In this document: piece after piece, positions 1 through 62,437 of the stretch
Numbering within the stretch: position 1 is the stretch's first letter
How the letters are laid out: each line of letters begins with the position of its first letter
Source of the DNA: Pseudomonadota bacterium
Lineage (GTDB): Bacteria > Pseudomonadota > Alphaproteobacteria > Rhizobiales > Xanthobacteraceae
Assembly: GCA_018240595.1 (NCBI GenBank)
Contig: JAFEFL010000063.1
Span: 172,701 to 236,700, forward strand
Reading direction: 5' to 3'
DNA: 64,000 nucleotides
Notes under the pieces: model-generated
Told to the model about the DNA's origin: nothing
Database searches by the model: none
The model's input: the letters and a program-made list of their open reading frames with translations, nothing else
Made by a program: the position numbers and the translations under genes

Positions 1-857
1 GCAATGTCGGTGCCCTGACGGATCGGCGCATAGAAGTCGGCCACCGACGCCGAGCGCGTGAAGCGCGGATCGACGACGATCAGCTTAGCGCCGCGATTGG
101 CTTTCGCCTCCGTGACCCATTTGAAGCCGCACGGGTGGGCTTCCGCCGCGTTGCCGCCCATGATGACGACAAGGTCGGTGTTCTTGATGTCCGTCCAAGA
201 GTTGGTCATCGCACCGCGACCGAATGTTGGGGCCAGACTGGCCACCGTCGGTCCGTGTCAGACTCTCGCTTGGTTGTCGAACGCCAGCATGCCGGCCGAG
301 CGGACCACTTTATAAGTGGCCCAGGCCGTTTCATTGGTGGTCGCGGACGCCGCCAGGAAGCCCGTGGTCAGCCACCGGTTGACGGTGACACCGTCGGAAT
401 TCTTGGCGATGAAATTCTTGTCGCGATCGTCTTTCATCAACCGCGCAACACGATCAAGCGCCTGATCCCAGGACACGCGCTCGAACTTGTCCGAGCCCGG
501 CTTGCGGATCTGCGGATACAACGTGCGCGTCTTGGCGTGAACGATGTCGAGGAGGCCGGCGCCCTTCGGGCACAACGTGCCGCGATTTGTCGGGTGGTCC
601 GGATCGCCTTCGATGTGAACGATGTCGGCCTTTTCGCCCTTCTTCAGATCGCCCTTGGAATACATGATGATTCCGCAGGCGACCGAGCAATATGTGCAGG
701 TGTTGCGGGTCTCGGTCAGGTTCGCGAGCTTCCAAGGCCGAATGGAACTCGCAAAGGCTTCTTCAATGTCTCCGAAGCCAAGCGCGCCGAGCGTTGTACC
801 GGCAATACCCACGCTGACGCCCTTCATGAACTGGCGCCGCGAGAGTTCCATATTCAT
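1..857 (-). CDS. fdnG: Formate dehydrogenase-N type alpha subunit, selenocysteine-containing (5' part; runs off window start)
   Basis: Tat signal SRRQFMK; Fe-S motif CTYCSVACG; the ORF-track stop at 258-260 is TGA in the context NQARV-U-HGPTVASLAPTFGRGAMTN, and the frame stays open to base 1 (…GGNAAEAHPCGFKW…VVDPRFTRSASVAD…). Confidence 0.95.
218..260 (-). promoter_or_regulatory. Bacterial SECIS element immediately 3' of the Sec UGA
   Basis: mRNA reads UGA CAC GGA CCG ACG GUG GCC AGU CUG GCC CCA ACA UUC GGU C: lower stem GACCGA/UCGGUC and upper stem GGCC(A)/(U)GGCC, the position and layout known for fdnG/fdhF SECIS. Confidence 0.8.
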
Positions 858-42228: not shown

Positions 42229-42304
42229 TGGTGGGCCCGGCAGGACTCGAACCTGCAACCAGACCGTTATGAGCGGTCGGCTCTAACCATTGAGCTACGG
42301 GCCC
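42229..42304 (-). tRNA. tRNA-Ile2 (anticodon CAU, lysidine type) with encoded CCA
   Basis: Reverse complement GGGCCCGTAGCTCAATGGTTAGAGCCGACCGCTCATAACGGTCTGGTTGCAGGTTCGAGTCCTGCCGGGCCCACCA; cloverleaf; paired G1-C72 excludes fMet; Ile2 versus elongator Met assigned by resemblance only. Confidence 0.9.
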
Positions 42305-49057: not shown

Positions 49058-49128
49058 CCGTTCGTTCCCGCGCAAGCGGGAACCCATCTTTTGAGAGACT
49101 GGGTCCCCGCTTTCGCGGGGACGAACGG
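49058..49128. repeat. Inverted REP-like doublet
   Basis: CCGTTCGTTCCCGCGCAAGCGGGAACCCA-N13-TGGGTCCCCGCTTTCGCGGGGACGAACGG; the two halves are near reverse complements, each a hairpin. Confidence 0.85.
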
Positions 49129-49157
49129 AGAATAAGCGATGGCCGTCGAGACCTCCC

Positions 49158-50360
49158 TCACGCCGGCACCGTCTGTGCCAGATAGTCGATCGCCGCAGCG
49201 CCGCCGCCGGAACCGTGCGGCAGCTTGAGCGCCTTCATGCCGATCTCCACCGCGCTCAGGGTGCCGAGCACCATCGGCGCGTTGACATGGCCCATATGGG
49301 CGATGCGGAAGCCGCGGCCCTCGGTCTTGCCGAGGGCGCGGCCGAGCACGACGCCGCACTTGTTCTGGCAGTAATCGACCAAAGCCTGCGCGCTCTCGCC
49401 GCCGCGGGTGATCACCGGCGTCACCGTGTCGCAACGCTCGGACGCCTCGCTGACGTTGAAGTCGAAAGTCTGGCCCTCCGACCACACCGCCACGGCGCGG
49501 CGCGTCGCCTCGGCCAGCGCGCGATGCCGCGCGAACACGTTGTCCTGGCCTTCGCTGAAGATGAGATCGAACGCGGCGCGCAGGCCGAACAGCAACGGCT
49601 CCGGCGGCGTGCCGCAATATTTCTGGTAGTGCACCGGCCCGTCGCGGAAGGTCCAGTCCCAATAGGGCGTGCGCATGTTCGCCTTCTTGTGCGCCTCCCG
49701 GGCCCGGGGGCCGGCGGCGGCGAAGCCGAGACCCGGCGGCGTCATCAGCCCTTTCTGCGAACCGGACATCGAGACATCGACGCCCCACTTGTCCATCTCG
49801 AACGGCACGCAGCCGAGCGAGGCCACCGTGTCGACGCAGAACAGCGCGTCGTGGCCGGCGGCGCGGATCGCCTCGCCGATCGCCTTGATGTCGTTGATGA
49901 CGCCCGAGGCGGTGTCGATCTGCGCCACCAGGATGGCCTTGATCTCGCCCTTGGTGTCGGCGCGCAGCCGCTTCTCGACCTGGTCCGGCTGCACGGCGCG
50001 GCGGAAATCGCCGGGCAGGATCTCGACCTCGGCGCCGAGCATCTTGGCCGCCTCGCCCCAGCCGATGGCGAAACGGCCGCTTTCCAGCACCAGCACCTTG
50101 TCGCCACGCGACAGCACATTGGTGAGCGCCGCTTCCCAGGCGCCGTGACCGTTGGCGGCGTAGATGTAGCAGCGGCCCTCGGTGGCGAAGATGCGCTTCA
50201 GATCGCGCAGCAGCGAATCCGTGAGCGCGACCATCGGCCCGGTGTAGATGTCGAGCATCGGCCGGTGCATCGCCTGCAGCACGGCATCGGGAACGTTGGT
50301 CGGGCCCGGAATGGCGAGGAATTCGCGGCCGGCGGCGACGGACGAGACTGGTTCGGACAT
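49158..50360 (-). CDS. Class V PLP aminotransferase (serine/alanine:glyoxylate family)
   Basis: LAIPGPTNVP, DTVASLG, SGSQKGLMTPPG, FRIAHMG. Confidence 0.92.
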   Translation of the reverse strand: MSEPVSSVAAGREFLAIPGPTNVPDAVLQAMHRPMLDIYTGPMVALTDSLLRDLKRIFATEGRCYIYAANGHGAWEAALTNVLSRGDKVLVLESGRFAIGWGEAAKMLGAEVEILPGDFRRAVQPDQVEKRLRADTKGEIKAILVAQIDTASGVINDIKAIGEAIRAAGHDALFCVDTVASLGCVPFEMDKWGVDVSMSGSQKGLMTPPGLGFAAAGPRAREAHKKANMRTPYWDWTFRDGPVHYQKYCGTPPEPLLFGLRAAFDLIFSEGQDNVFARHRALAEATRRAVAVWSEGQTFDFNVSEASERCDTVTPVITRGGESAQALVDYCQNKCGVVLGRALGKTEGRGFRIAHMGHVNAPMVLGTLSAVEIGMKALKLPHGSGGGAAAIDYLAQTVPA

Positions 50361-50442
50361 GCGGGGAAGAAACCTTCTGCGGAAGGCCGCTCCCTAGCAT
50401 GATTTGCCTGGCCCGGTTGATCACGATTCTTGATCGATTCCA

Positions 50443-50820
50443 TCAGCGTTTCGGCAGCTCCGGCGCGGCGGGGGCGGCGGCGGCCGTCTCGGCGGCGCGG
50501 CGCTCGTGGAACGCACGGGCAGCCTGCATGTCGTCGAGCAGGCGGCGCCTCATCCGGGCATCGCGCCGCGCGGCGATCTGCGGCGGCACGTCGTCCTCCG
50601 GCGGCAGCGGCGGCGCCGCGGCGCATTCGATATCCGGCGCGAAGCAGCGCCGGGAGCGCCGGCACATGGCGTGCTCGCAACCCTGCCACCAGCGCTGCTG
50701 ATCCGCGATGAGCCGCATGATCTTGCGCGCGAGGCGCAGGCGCTGCGTGTCGATATCCTGCGGCTTCGTATCGTCGTTATCGTCCCGGTCGGGACGCCGG
50801 CTGTCGCTCATGCGCGGCAT
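50443..50820 (-). CDS. Small hypothetical protein with C-x4-C-x5-C-x6-C motif
   Basis: GGAG RBS 8 nt before ATG; WWQGCEHAMCRRSRRCFAPDIEC; 125 aa. Confidence 0.65.
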   Translation of the reverse strand: MPRMSDSRRPDRDDNDDTKPQDIDTQRLRLARKIMRLIADQQRWWQGCEHAMCRRSRRCFAPDIECAAAPPLPPEDDVPPQIAARRDARMRRRLLDDMQAARAFHERRAAETAAAAPAAPELPKR

Positions 50821-50833
50821 GATGCTGTCTCCA

Positions 50834-50894
50834 TGGCTTGGCAGATTGGCTTGGCTAAATGGCTTGGCGCGTTGGCTTGACGAGATGGATTGGC
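50834..50894. repeat. Five direct repeats with 13-bp period (TGGCTTGGC-N4)
   Basis: 9-mers start at 50834, 50847, 50860 (TGGCTTGGC), 50873 (TGGCTTGAC) and 50886 (TGGATTGGC). Confidence 0.9.
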
Positions 50895-50913
50895 GAAGCG
50901 AGAGCGGGCGAAA

Positions 50914-51440
50914 GGCGCCTGCGTGATGGTGAAGAAGGCGGCCGGCCCTGAAAACGGGCGCGCGGCCTCACCCGTGTTGTTTGAGCGGCGCCGGGTACGC
51001 CGTCGTCGGAGGTCTTGGGCCTTGCCCTCACTTCGTCTCCACGCGGAGAAAAGTGCGAGGGCGCGGAGCGCCGTGAAACGCGGAGGTTTGCGAGACCTCC
51101 TGAGCGGCCGGCGCGGCCGCCCGAGACGCTGGCGAGGCGTCTTCTCTCCGCTTGCGATCGCGGAGAGGCGCCTCACGGCGCTCCACGTTGTGGCGATTTC
51201 TGTCCGCGGGGCCGTAGCTTCCGGATGACGGCTGCGATCGGCGCCCCTCGCGGGACGACGACCTCCGGCGGGCTTTCGCCCGCCTTCACCGGCACCGCGT
51301 CCAGCCCACTGAAGGGCGGGGGTTCGTAGTAACCCCGGACGGCTGCCCGCGGCCTCCCGGAGGCGGGGTTACGAGCCCCGCCCGCAGGCGCCACACCCTG
51401 CCCCACGTTCAGCGAGCGTCTGCAGAACGCCCCTCGCCTG
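50914..51440. ncRNA. Candidate large structured non-coding RNA or non-autonomous element (strand unresolved)
   Basis: Nested helices 50914-23/51383-92, 50985-94/51289-98, 51007-14/51260-67, 51065-76/51173-84 and 51314-37/51364-83, plus at least 8 local hairpins; no credible ORF. Confidence 0.6.
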
Positions 51441-51456
51441 GGACAAGGCGATTTGC

Positions 51457-51506
51457 AAGGTATAGAAGCCTAGGATGGAAGTCAAGGGGCTAAATTAGAC
51501 CCTTGA
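51457..51506 (-). promoter_or_regulatory. Sigma70-like promoter with overlapping palindrome, pointing into the structured element
   Basis: Minus strand TTGACT-N17-TACCTT (51485-80, 51462-57); palindrome TCAAGGG-G-CTAA-A-TTAG-A-CCCTTGA at 51482-51506. Confidence 0.5.
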
Positions 51507-51552
51507 GCGTTCGATAGCCCGAGACACTTTTCCAAAGTTCGACGCGCCCAAA

Positions 51553-51639
51553 CCGTCATGGCCGGGCTTGGCCCGGCCATCCATGTCTAGAGTCCGTGCG
51601 AAGAAAGTTCTGGATCCCCGCTTTCGCGGGGATGAGCGG
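51553..51639. repeat. Inverted doublet of two different REP-like units
   Basis: CCGTCATGGCCGGGCTTGGCCCGGCCATCCA … TGGATCCCCGCTTTCGCGGGGATGAGCGG. Confidence 0.85.
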
Positions 51640-51647
51640 AGAATGGA

Positions 51648-51896
51648 TCACGCCTCGTTCAGCGATGCGCCGCGGGCGCTCATCGTGTCCTGGCCCTTGC
51701 GCGTCAGCATGAACTTGGCGCCGAGCGCCGCCATATCCTGGTGCGAACAGGTGACGTAGTCGCGCGCGATCAGCGAGGCGACGCGTTCCGCCCGCTCCGG
51801 CTTGTCCTCGTCATGCGCATATTCGCCGATGTCGGCGAGCAGCGCGATGTCGTCGTTGTCGAGATCGTCGCCGGTCGGAACGGGGTTGTCGGACAT
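51648..51896 (-). CDS. Small hypothetical protein (82 aa)
   Basis: GGGAGG RBS; acidic N-terminus; wHTH-like LIARDYV…FMLTRKG ending. Confidence 0.6.
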   Translation of the reverse strand: MSDNPVPTGDDLDNDDIALLADIGEYAHDEDKPERAERVASLIARDYVTCSHQDMAALGAKFMLTRKGQDTMSARGASLNEA

Positions 51897-51954
51897 GGAT
51901 GCGGCCTCCCTCCGGGGATAACGGAGGCGGCGGCGCGTGGTTCCGGGGCGCTTT

Positions 51955-52197
51955 CACCTCTCCCAGCCGAAGTCGGATATATCCGACTTCGACCATCTAA
52001 TAATGCTGAACTCGGGTAAACCCGAGTTCAGGTGGGAGAGGTCGGCTCGCCACTAGCGCGTTTACGCGCGTCTTCGACGCGCTATGGCGAGCCGGGTGAG
52101 GGGTTACAAACTCTCGGGCTCACTTGCCCCCTCACCCCAACCCTCTCCCCCATGCTCGCCGGACGGCGAGCGTCCGCTCGCCTATGGGGAGAGGGAG
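51955..52197. repeat. Composite nested palindromic repeat
   Basis: Four 10-bp stems (ACCTCTCCCA/TGGGAGAGGT, CGGCTCGCCA/TGGCGAGCCG, GGGTGAGGGG/CCCCTCACCC, CCCTCTCCCC/GGGGAGAGGG); three loops carry further palindromic inserts. Confidence 0.88.
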
Positions 52198-52215
52198 CGC
52201 GCCGAGTACGCGGCG

Positions 52216-52602
52216 CTACGCCGCCGGGATCGGACGCGGCCGGCCGTTGTCGTCGATGGCGACGAAGGTGAAGTGCGCGTCGGTCACCTTCTCGTGGTGC
52301 CGCGTCTGGAAGCGACGCGCCCAGGCCTCGACGTGGATCTTCATCGAGGTGCGGCCGATCGAGTCGACATGGGTGTAGACCTCGAGCACGTCGCCCACCT
52401 TGACCGGGCGGATGAACTTCATGGCGTCGACCGCGATGGTGACGACGCGGCCGTGCGCGCGCTCGATGGCGGCGATGCCGCCGGCCTGGTCCATGCGCGA
52501 CAGCACCCAGCCGCCGAAGATGTCGCCATTGGCGTTGGTGTCCGCCGGCATGGCGCTGATGCGCACCGTGAGATGGCCGCGCGGGGCGGTGTCGTCGGTC
52601 AT
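52216..52602 (-). CDS. Acyl-CoA thioesterase (YciA-like hotdog fold)
   Basis: AMPADTNANGDIFGGWVLSRMDQAG, PVKVGDV, GRTSM, FTFVAIDDNGRPR. Confidence 0.92.
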   Translation of the reverse strand: MTDDTAPRGHLTVRISAMPADTNANGDIFGGWVLSRMDQAGGIAAIERAHGRVVTIAVDAMKFIRPVKVGDVLEVYTHVDSIGRTSMKIHVEAWARRFQTRHHEKVTDAHFTFVAIDDNGRPRPIPAA

Positions 52603-62304: not shown

Positions 62305-62437
62305 CCGTCATGGCCCGCGCAGGCGGGCCATCCAGCGCCCCCCGCAAACGTCATCGCCCGCGAAAGCGGGCGATCCGGCAATTGAAGGAAGCTTGAATAC
62401 GAAGAGCTGGATCCCCGCTTTCGCGGGGGATGACCGG
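62305..62437. repeat. Cluster of three REP-like hairpins
   Basis: GTCATGGCCCGCGCAGGCGGGCCATCC, GTCATCGCCCGCGAAAGCGGGCGATCC and inverted TGGATCCCCGCTTTCGCGGGGGATGACCGG. Confidence 0.85.

Follow-up and report, generated by a model that had tools for sequence, protein, structure and literature searches.

The minus strand of the window (the whole 64,000-nucleotide stretch of Xanthobacteraceae DNA analysed here) very probably contains, from ca. 50950 to 51452, an independently transcribed gene for a highly structured non-coding RNA of about 500 nt belonging to a family outside Rfam. The first-pass annotation had proposed an undescribed large structured functional RNA at 50914-51440, and this proposal was borne out by strong covariation, by the lack of a match in Rfam and by the presence of copies in metatranscriptomes, although the true unit is the one given above, with a promoter motif reaching 51486. 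All along the family the same architecture is found, consisting of a 5' hairpin, a near-invariant core of about 210 nt, an 18-bp helix with a copy-specific hairpin cluster, and a 3' domain.

Covariation, strand and coding potential

For the comparison of helices, a set of about 30 homologues was drawn from genomes and metagenomes. An alignment of 18 sequences gave 88 consensus pairs, 96.9% paired, with double changes in 27 of them; for the core, 22 sequences fitted to its covariance model gave 56 pairs, 96.4% paired, with double changes in 19; none of 500 shuffles equalled either result. Slid controls were 40-47% paired for the 18-sequence alignment, and 39-49% over both alignments as against the 96-97% observed. 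The core was scored by covariance model R1 with 188.8 bits (E = 1e-52). Judged from these alignments, there is a strong case that compensatory substitutions go beyond the phylogenetic background, as would be expected of a structured non-coding RNA in general. With regard to folding energy, the z value of the full region against dinucleotide shuffles was -4.49 for the plus and -4.85 for the minus strand, values that 0 of 100 shuffles attained, and the four-hairpin domain by itself folded with -87.5 kcal/mol (z = -8.24).

The paired columns contain 160 G-U or U-G cells as against 9 A-C or C-A cells. This excess implies selection on one RNA strand rather than on strand-symmetric DNA palindromes, and it places the RNA on the minus strand of the window, a point that the first-pass annotation had left open. 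As the annotation had also noted, no credible protein is encoded: the ORF check of the region yielded no credible ORF spanning it, and a coding role for the ORFs of 77-122 aa lying over it was rejected, the homologues carrying indels of 1-2 nt and compensatory substitutions in helices.

Domains of the RNA and candidate transcription signals

The features of the window copy are collected in Table 1. In the core, several helices meet in a junction whose nucleotides are conserved; it also has the GNRA-capped H9 and a YUCGYAR loop, the latter present on H4 in every copy. Compensation is well illustrated by one H4 pair (GC in 11 sequences, UA in 7, AU in 3) and by a pair of the H5/H6 helices (columns 150/303 of A1; CG in 10, UA in 8). 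The latter pair is still compensated in the copy L100, where H9 reads GGUGGC-GGGA-GCCGCC. The strands of H5/H6 are 51340-52 with 51204-14, and 51335-39 with 51220-24. Besides the GAAA of H9, the GNRA loops GCAA and GCGA cap other hairpins. The local fold of the 5' hairpin domain has -28.8 kcal/mol (z = -2.6).

Table 1. Predicted features of the RNA gene and its flanks (window coordinates)
Feature	Position	Strand	Basis or remarks
-35-like hexamer CTTGAC	51481..51486	-	Precedes the first conserved residues of the RNA by about 36 nt
CCTAGG palindrome in the promoter spacer	51470..51475		Alignment of copies
-10-like element (C)TATACC	51459..51465	-	TATAcc, TATATA or TTATTA at the same position among copies
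Predicted RNA gene, ~500 nt	50950..51452	-	Extent is the block conserved among homologues; putative ends
5' hairpin domain, H1 (UGUCCC/GGGGCA) around H2	51399..51445	-	Double changes in 4 of 4 H1 pairs
Conserved core, H4-H10 inside H3 (GUGGC 51394-90 / GCCAC 51194-90)	51190..51394	-	Covariance model, 22 sequences
H4 hairpin, conserved 7-nt loop CUCGUAA	51356..51388	-	Compensatory changes in 5 of 12 pairs
H5/H6 long-range helices around H7, H8, H9 and H10	51204..51352	-	Covarying
H9 hairpin GGCGGGC-GAAA-GCCCGCC, GNRA tetraloop	51267..51284	-	99-100% paired, G-C/G-U alternation
H11, 18 bp (51064-81/51168-85), closing the variable peripheral domain	51064..51185	-	Double changes in 5 pairs
3' domain hairpin 3a (GCCCUCGCAC.../...GUGAGGGC)	51024..51062	-	z = -3.33; by inspection
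3' domain hairpin 3b (GGCG-UACCCGG-CGCC)	50985..51001	-	Stem alternates GGCG/CGCC and GGCC/GGCC among copies
Terminator-like hairpin CGGGUGAGGCCGCGCGCCCG, followed by UUUU	50951..50975	-	Equivalent hairpin and U-rich tail close the conservation in other copies

The content of the variable domain differs among paralogues, and the domain is absent from one relative. In the window copy it holds four hairpins, three of them with (C/A)UCGC(A/C)A loops, so that, together with H4, loops of the (C/A)UCG(U/C)(A/C)A type amount to four; by inspection of the alignments, the number of YUCGYAR-type loops ranges from about 1 to 4 per copy. The stem of hairpin 3a reads CCCUCGG/CCGAGGG, CCCCGAG/CUCGGGG or CCUCCGG/CCGGAGG elsewhere, variants that look compensatory by inspection. 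Two ideas concerning the loops were dropped, namely kissing of the H4 loop with the H7 loop, for which covariation was not seen, and mimicry of a tRNA anticodon by CUCGUAA, because the U/C variation would change its identity.

The helices listed in the first-pass annotation do exist in the window sequence, among them P1, a 10-bp inverted repeat without mismatch, as well as P3 and the helices of 12 and ca. 20 bp, and several of them belong to the family fold. The 12-bp helix was recovered, together with the four hairpins it closes, in the longer form of H11, the GCGGGC-TTTC-GCCCGC hairpin is H9 with its GAAA loop, the long hairpin at 51024-62 corresponds on inspection to 3a, and the hairpin at 51410-40 forms part of the 5' hairpin domain. 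The fully nested P1/P2/P3 frame, in contrast, is not the family fold. The partner strands of P1 (50914-23/51383-92) and P3 are complementary in the window copy only (in 0 of 9 other copies), and the left arm of P1 falls past the terminator-like hairpin. Neither the irregular hairpin at 51202-56 nor the ~20-bp helix is compatible with the covarying helices H5/H6 and the hairpins H4 and H7. As for P2, the complementarity of 50985-94 to the J8/9 segment 51289-98 has counterparts, differing in sequence, in most copies, and its left arm is overlapped by hairpin 3b. P2 may be retained, as a pseudoknot rather than as the nested helix originally drawn.

CTTGAC or variants of it with one mismatch are found at a fixed distance in nearly all full copies, and the spacer palindrome takes the form TCCTA-N0-5-TAGGA in other copies. 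The CTTGAC / TATAnn motif is a putative promoter, judged from its conservation; a simple sigma-70 scan with a spacer of 16-18 nt misses it because the spacer of the window copy is only 15 nt. Transcription would start about 7 nt downstream of the conserved CTTGAC-N15-17-TATAnn and would end at a weak intrinsic terminator ahead of the next gene. The terminator-like hairpin is indeed weak (z = 0.09, four U), and it escapes a strict terminator scan. From the promoter motif (51459-51486) and this hairpin we infer that the RNA begins near 51452 and ends near 50950.

Expression, hosts and genomic context

Copies of the family appear in metatranscriptome assemblies. A soil metatranscriptome contig of 263 nt covers 50977-51238 with 4 differences, the flanking ORFs being without contigs; further RNA-Seq contigs lie over 51258-51450, no metatranscriptome contig extends to the left of about 50959, and a 431-nt RNA-Seq contig is co-extensive with the copy L049. 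Words of the family were found in more than 20 RNA runs; some runs marked 'RNA?' evidently contain DNA. Coverage by the RNA-Seq contigs, which are unstranded, is confined to the RNA and spares its flanks; their ends could be assembly branch points, and DNA carry-over is possible. Several contig ends (Logan contigs) coincide with points at which paralogues diverge, as at L049:1212/1213, and 'metatranscriptomic WGS' runs also cover the promoter and so probably contain DNA. For both reasons the ends of these contigs were rejected as transcript ends and no transcription start site is claimed from them. In runs containing DNA, the collapse of multiple copies could mimic high expression.

The family is hosted by Xanthobacteraceae of soil and sediment that are related to Pseudolabrys and Undibacter, and sequences of Xanthobacteraceae relatives have been encountered in many metagenomes from soil, sediment, sludge and rhizosphere. 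Homologues were obtained at 3 loci from genome contigs and about 27 from metagenome contigs, in addition to syntenic loci. The first pattern used on genome contigs demanded the GCCCGCC variant of H9 and returned 37 chance matches and 3 true loci, so that the range among GTDB genomes is underestimated. Several diverged paralogues occur in one MAG (L007 and L020) and in one assembly (OFIS01, five contigs of which bear copies), and they occupy orthologous chromosomal sites across organisms, the same type of paralogue being found at the same locus in different assemblies (aminotransferase, panC, DUF1013/ispH and HigBA loci). Neither blastn nor the covariance model detected a second copy in the 64-kb window, where only REP-like repeats were found, and collections of plasmids, phages and viruses rendered no copy. 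Genuine REP-like repeats adjoin copies of the family.

The order at the aminotransferase locus, in the window as well as in L044, L046, L060, L065, L095 and L100, is the RNA, then on the same strand an ORF for a small Cys protein (125 aa in the window), or its homologue, and then the aminotransferase. Only for the paralogue of this locus is the downstream ORF constant, and a small co-directional ORF is always present there. A word-indexed search with the Cys ORF returned itself alone, while tblastn on the family loci revealed diverged homologues; nucleotide identity in the RNA is 75-82%, compared with an amino-acid identity of 31-43% in the adjacent Cys ORF. Elsewhere the downstream genes are unrelated to one another: czcD, an acyl-CoA dehydrogenase gene and a desaturase gene are found downstream of paralogues having the same core, and for about half of the copies the next gene is convergent (panC, LysE or DUF1013, for example). 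Some loci have decayed to a 5' remnant, and relatives without the RNA body and the Cys ORF retain the aminotransferase. The polymorphism in presence and absence that had been predicted does exist: L049 carries the RNA at the GGT-czcD site, which is empty in Undibacter mobilis and a Rhodopseudomonas MAG; a comparison of the filled and empty sites, which is blurred by REPs, gave no target-site duplication.

Relation to known RNAs and possible function

The family is new to Rfam. At gathering thresholds, no model of Rfam 15 matched the region or any of nine other loci; the models included those for RNase P, tmRNA, SRP, 6S, group I and II introns and riboswitches as well as OLE, ROOL, GOLLD, raiA and HEARO. 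In permissive mode (E up to 10) the region gave chance matches only, the best being scr5239 with 28.1 bits as against a gathering threshold of 64, and L049 gave none. ARAGORN found 0 genes for tRNA or tmRNA, including the two-piece alphaproteobacterial tmRNA, in 50000-52500, and searches of the literature by sequence, taxon or motif returned no description of the family.

In its general features the RNA resembles OLE, ROOL, GOLLD and raiA, which are likewise stand-alone, lineage-restricted RNAs of several hundred nt with many covarying helices, GNRA tetraloops, conserved junction nucleotides, variable peripheral hairpins and a context uninformative on function. It differs from them in its host, a member of the Alphaproteobacteria (Xanthobacteraceae), and in its several diverged chromosomal paralogues at conserved sites. 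ROOL and GOLLD are found in prophages or tRNA clusters and OLE is linked to oapA; here, neither a prophage or tRNA-cluster context nor linked partner genes are seen. With CsrB/RsmX-Z, 6S and Ms1 the RNA shares a promoter and terminator of its own (candidates here), a trans-acting mode (proposed here), several paralogues per genome and a recurring loop motif. However, this motif is YUCGYAR and not the GGA-loop repeats of CsrB/RsmX-Z, the number of motif hairpins is not conserved among copies, there is no open-promoter bubble as in 6S, the junction architecture is much more complex than in CsrB, 6S or Ms1, and the Rfam models of 6S and CsrB type do not match. HEARO/omega RNAs and the IS110 bridge RNA likewise combine a constant structured scaffold with a variable segment and are present several times per genome, but the variable part of our RNA is a folded hairpin cluster instead of a single-stranded guide; neither the gene lists nor the Pfam labels of the loci with listed ORFs contain an IscB, TnpB or IS110 gene beside a copy, and the HEARO model does not match.

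We tentatively propose that the RNA acts in trans, as a folded RNA or as the core of a ribonucleoprotein. By analogy, the precisely folded core would bind a conserved cellular partner, as a protein scaffold or decoy, or would form an RNA-only assembly, and the variable peripheral domain would tune or diversify this activity among paralogues. An unlikely reading is that the family constitutes a new large-RNA class with a catalytic or self-assembling core, in which the paralogue-specific hairpin domains would be interchangeable specificity modules of a chromosomal multi-paralogue machine. Abundant soil Alphaproteobacteria would then possess an RNA device built of a constant core and a variable module. 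Slightly less probable still is a ribozyme or a self-assembling RNA-only particle whose core is catalytic or oligomerising and is not a protein scaffold. The size of about 500 nt, the near-invariant junctions and loops between covarying helices, the GNRA tetraloops and the possible long-range pseudoknot would fit it, although no Rfam ribozyme or ornate-RNA model is similar and the phage or mobile context of ROOL and GOLLD is missing; homo-oligomers have been demonstrated for GOLLD, ROOL and OLE (PMC12286853).

That the RNA could be a long leader was contemplated in the first-pass annotation. As a cis-acting leader or riboswitch it would be the long 5' UTR of the operon of the Cys ORF and the aminotransferase, with terminator read-through controlled by a ligand or a protein, and the window locus would suit this: the core is junction-rich, conserved and aptamer-like, a terminator-like hairpin ends the RNA just upstream of the Cys ORF, and the co-directional gene order kept there may allow a local cis effect through read-through. 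The RNA is, however, far larger than known aptamers, with some 250 nt of variable structure between core and terminator, no Rfam riboswitch matches it, a constant, co-directional and functionally related gene is not found across the copies, and the aminotransferase persists in relatives that have lost the RNA, all of which makes this reading very unlikely. Even more improbable is a non-autonomous mobile element, perhaps with the Cys ORF as cargo, or a group of REP/MITE-type palindromes whose hairpins operate at the DNA level. Such a reading would account for a multi-copy, intergenic and hairpin-rich family with filled and empty sites, truncated remnants, flanking REP-like repeats and folding z values similar on both strands, properties that recall REP/BIME, RIME, ERIC and Correia (MITE-like) sequences. 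In contrast to these, the RNA is about 500 nt long, shows the strand asymmetry of an RNA, has candidate promoter and terminator signals, and is represented by old, diverged paralogues at orthologous sites instead of many near-identical copies. Moreover, the window holds a single copy, P1 is unique to it, the remnants retain the 5' end, unlike the truncation of retroelements, and on inspection the limits of the family (AGAAAATA...CTTGAC on the 5' side, hairpin and U-rich tail on the 3' side) showed no conserved terminal inverted repeats or target duplication. From the lack of copies in the plasmid and phage collections and from the differing, often convergent neighbours we conclude that the RNA is very probably neither a leader nor a MITE. 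Chance folding of functionless GC-rich spacer DNA has a practically nil probability: at a genomic G+C content of ca. 68% long helices are frequent, and P1 and P3 are indeed copy-specific coincidences, but z values of about -4.5 to -8, a conservation above that of the neighbouring ORF and the extensive covariation already refute it.

The large (>400 nt) bacterial non-coding RNAs with complex folds known to us fall into only about a dozen classes, and each large class of which we are aware (RNase P, tmRNA, group I/II introns, OLE, ROOL, GOLLD) revealed unusual biochemistry. The structural alignment, the assigned strand, the candidate promoter and terminator signals and the decayed loci, which are natural "knock-outs", are ready at hand, and it is unusual, and provides a testable handle, that a near-invariant core is joined to peripheral domains specific to each paralogue. 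Rfam-based annotation misses, in these genomes, a conserved gene of about 500 nt with copies in metatranscriptomes, and the family would add one class of large RNA, in Xanthobacteraceae relatives.

Conservation and strand of the fold

The predicted ~500-nt RNA lies in an interval between two minus-strand ORFs (50821-51647). As the first-pass annotation, made from the sequence alone, would lead one to expect, a 527-nt stretch of this region has a more stable fold than dinucleotide-shuffled sequence on either strand (plus, -300.2 vs -268.1 ± 7.2 kcal/mol, z = -4.49; minus, -304.4 vs -266.3 ± 7.9 kcal/mol, z = -4.85), and its four-hairpin segment by itself gives z = -8.24; the z-scores of the two strands are too alike to decide the strand of the RNA. 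Also in agreement with that annotation, the region reached the gathering score of no Rfam 15 family, and what matched at E up to 10 was due to chance. ARAGORN found nothing in it, and the window holds no second copy of the RNA, only the REP-like repeats at 51553-51645 being recurrent. The sole gathering-level Rfam matches in the window are a SECIS_3 element and a tRNA gene.

Eighteen full copies were aligned in the minus-strand sense, and the RNAalifold consensus comprised 88 pairs, with 96.9% of cells paired and changes on both sides in 27 pairs. None of 500 column shuffles matched the observed value on any of five measures, and sliding the partners by 1-3 columns lowered pairing to 40-47%. 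When 22 copies, the divergent L100 among them, were aligned with a model, pairing was 96.4% and 19 of 56 pairs were doubly changed, so that the compensatory changes sought by the first-pass annotation are found in both alignments. Paired columns contain 160 G-U/U-G cells vs only 9 A-C/C-A cells, and therefore the RNA is encoded on the minus strand. Together these results show that the paralogues of this family share an RNA fold, which is conserved, covarying and strand-specific.

Architecture and flanking signals

Core junctions and loops are nearly invariant across copies. The inverted repeats described earlier are all present in the window, and several correspond to family helices: the 12-bp helix belongs to H11 and the four hairpins it closes are confirmed too, GCGGGC-TTTC-GCCCGC is H9, the long hairpin is 3a, and the hairpin at 51410-40 is H2. 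The enclosing helices P1 (50914-23/51383-92) and P3 (51007-14/51260-67), on the other hand, have a complementary partner in the window copy only (0/9 other copies); the left arm of P1 falls beyond the terminal hairpin and the 5' arm of P3 is taken by the covarying H10. The proposed irregular hairpin clashes with H5/H6, and in place of the supposed 20-bp helix there are two local hairpins, H4 and H7, each with compensatory changes. P2 (50985-94/51289-98) joins the J8/9 segment to the 3b region, where most copies have complementary segments despite differing sequences (e.g. GGCGGCUUGCCG/CGGCAGGCCGCC in L025 and GGGUUCG/CGAACCC in L059); it may form a pseudoknot across H3/H5/H6, although the shuffle control is weak in this GC-rich context.

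Coordinates of the RNA and of neighbouring features (window positions unless a locus is named)
Feature	Position	Strand	Remarks
SECIS_3 element	205-263	-	Rfam, 85.4 bits
tRNA gene	42232-42304	-	Rfam gathering level
Cys ORF	50443-50820	-	125 aa; no Pfam match, no word-index homologues; W..C....C.....C; GC3 0.90
Tandem 13-nt units	50826-50897		4-5 units (TGGCTTGGCnnnn; GCCAAGCCA on minus strand)
5' hairpin domain H1/H2	51445-51399	-	
H3	51394-90 with 51194-90	-	closes ~205-nt core
H4 hairpin	within core	-	invariant-type 7-nt loop YUCGYAR
H5/H6 long-range helices	within core	-	enclose H7, H8, H9, H10
H9 hairpin	inside H5/H6	-	GAAA tetraloop
H10	inside H5/H6	-	variable
H11, 18 bp	51185-68 with 51081-64	-	closes copy-specific hairpin cluster
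Hairpin 3a	51062-24	-	
Purine-rich linker	between 3a and 3b (51002-51023 region)	-	GAAGGGGAAG-like, in 3' domain of most copies
Hairpin 3b	51001-50985	-	
Terminal hairpin, then UUUU	50975-50951	-	
12-bp palindrome	51482-51506		TCAAGGGGCTAA / TTAGACCCTTGA
REP-like palindromic repeats	51553-51588, 51601-51645, 49099-49133, 62407-62428		catggccgggcttggcccggccatg; ggatccccgctttcgcggggatgagcgg
82-aa ORF	51648-51896	-	no Pfam match
HigBA-like pair	L059, L063, L090		upstream of RNA copy
BrnT/BrnA-like pair	L025 1613-2117		upstream of RNA copy
DUF4160 + DUF2442 pair	L094 324-849; L095 1-468		upstream of RNA copy

Complementarity between the linker and UUCCCUC, the 5' flank and arm of hairpin 3a, suggests that an alternative pairing or triplex could form. 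Past the terminal hairpin most non-window-type copies (L041, L049, L007, L059, L075, L086 and others) share CTGTTTGA(A/C)AATTGAAT, a conservation that exceeds the needs of a plain terminator tail. In copy L054 (5042-5311) ~15 nt are inserted into the H4 hairpin and ~50 nt at H6/H7; the core model nevertheless gives this copy 138 bits.

The hexamer CTTGAC, exact or with one mismatch, lies ~36 nt before the first conserved RNA residues in all full copies; it is followed by a -10-like TATAnn and, in many copies, preceded by an A-rich stretch; the spacer holds the palindrome TCCTA-N0-5-TAGGA. A strict sigma-70 scan was negative on the window copy because its spacer is 15 nt, and a strict terminator scan did not call its 4-U terminal hairpin. 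Position and conservation nevertheless point to a putative promoter and terminator. The 12-bp palindrome of the table overlaps the -35 hexamer and was not seen in L065, the closest copy examined.

Distribution, transcription and genomic context

Logan metagenome contigs from many soil, sediment and sludge samples match ~50895-51400 at 90-99% identity, and the flanking ORFs are scarcely covered. Exact-pattern scanning found three true loci among species-representative genomes, of which one belongs to an uncultured alphaproteobacterial MAG and two to the single MAG OH_CBrB_365; a pattern scan of metagenome contigs added ~27. R1, a covariance model of the core, found a single copy in the window (188.8 bits); in the loci fetched it found 30 copies and two decayed remnants. 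One assembly, OFIS01, has copies on five contigs, and one metagenome has them on eight; none was found in PLSDB plasmids, INPHARED phages or IMG/VR contigs. Flanking proteins, 87-90% identical to Pseudolabrys MAG proteins, place the window organism as Pseudolabrys-like, and L049 near Undibacter mobilis (89% identity).

At least some transcription of the family is shown by RNA-Seq assemblies. A 263-nt contig from soil cDNA spans 50977-51238 with four differences, the flanking ORFs having no contigs; other metatranscriptomes cover 51258-51450, none of the contigs extending left of ~50959; and a 431-nt cold-seep contig is co-extensive with L049. Family words are present in >20 RNA runs; some runs marked 'RNA?' cover the promoter too and therefore probably contain DNA. 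These contigs are unstranded, and some of their ends are points of paralogue divergence.

In different assemblies a given paralogue type occupies the same locus, namely aminotransferase-SLT (window, L044, L046, L060, L065, L095, L100), panC (L007, L055), DUF1013/ispH (L025, L075, L091) and HigBA (L054, L059, L063, L090), which indicates that the paralogues are old and vertically inherited. Between organisms at the window locus the RNA is 75-82% identical, vs only 31-43% for the adjacent Cys protein. Loci can also decay: in four Pseudolabrys-type contigs the RNA is reduced to its first ~100 nt, and the Cys ORF has gone with the rest.

At the aminotransferase locus (L044, L046, L060, L065, L095) the RNA is invariably followed by a diverged homologue of the Cys ORF (31-43% identity); L093 and L094 have lost this ORF along with the body of the RNA. 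The tandem 13-nt units, absent from L065 and L095, are situated between the terminal hairpin and the Cys start codon and may be a regulator-binding array or a slippage product. REP-like repeats are very deeply covered in assemblies of metagenomes and metatranscriptomes, and similar clusters flank other copies. Small toxin-antitoxin-like gene pairs lie directly upstream of several copies, and HATPase_c_3 or HD-CE genes are inserted there in L093 and L105; the 5' flank looks like an insertion hot spot.

Possible function and relation to known RNAs

The genes beside the RNA vary among copies, and roughly half of those downstream are convergent, which excludes a general leader or riboswitch role and, with it, the long leader first proposed. 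The alternative that the stretch is the body of a mobile element agrees with a presence/absence difference of the kind that the first-pass annotation suggested looking for: the GGT-czcD spacer holds REPs plus the RNA in L049, whereas Undibacter mobilis and a Rhodopseudomonas MAG have it empty. However, no terminal inverted repeats or target duplications were seen by inspection at the family boundaries and the G-U signal is on one strand, which argues against a MITE/REP element. A stand-alone RNA acting in trans would be the preferred reading. Its invariant junctions and loops, GNRA-capped helices, possible pseudoknot and swappable peripheral domain are the signature of a defined tertiary fold, which could bind a conserved partner or act alone. 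We tentatively favour the view that it is a ribonucleoprotein scaffold or decoy, and regard a ribozyme or RNA-only assembly as rather improbable.

Among known RNAs, this one most resembles the few large 'ornate' orphan RNAs of bacteria, OLE, ROOL, GOLLD and raiA, of which GOLLD, ROOL and OLE are described as forming homo-oligomers (PMC12286853). The Rfam search placed the present RNA in none of them, and it differs in being alphaproteobacterial and chromosomal, in occurring as several diverged paralogues and in lacking any link with phages or partner genes. No description of it turned up in the literature covered, which was searched by sequence strings, taxa and motif terms. We rate it as a new family inside a known kind, which would be of high interest for RNA biologists.
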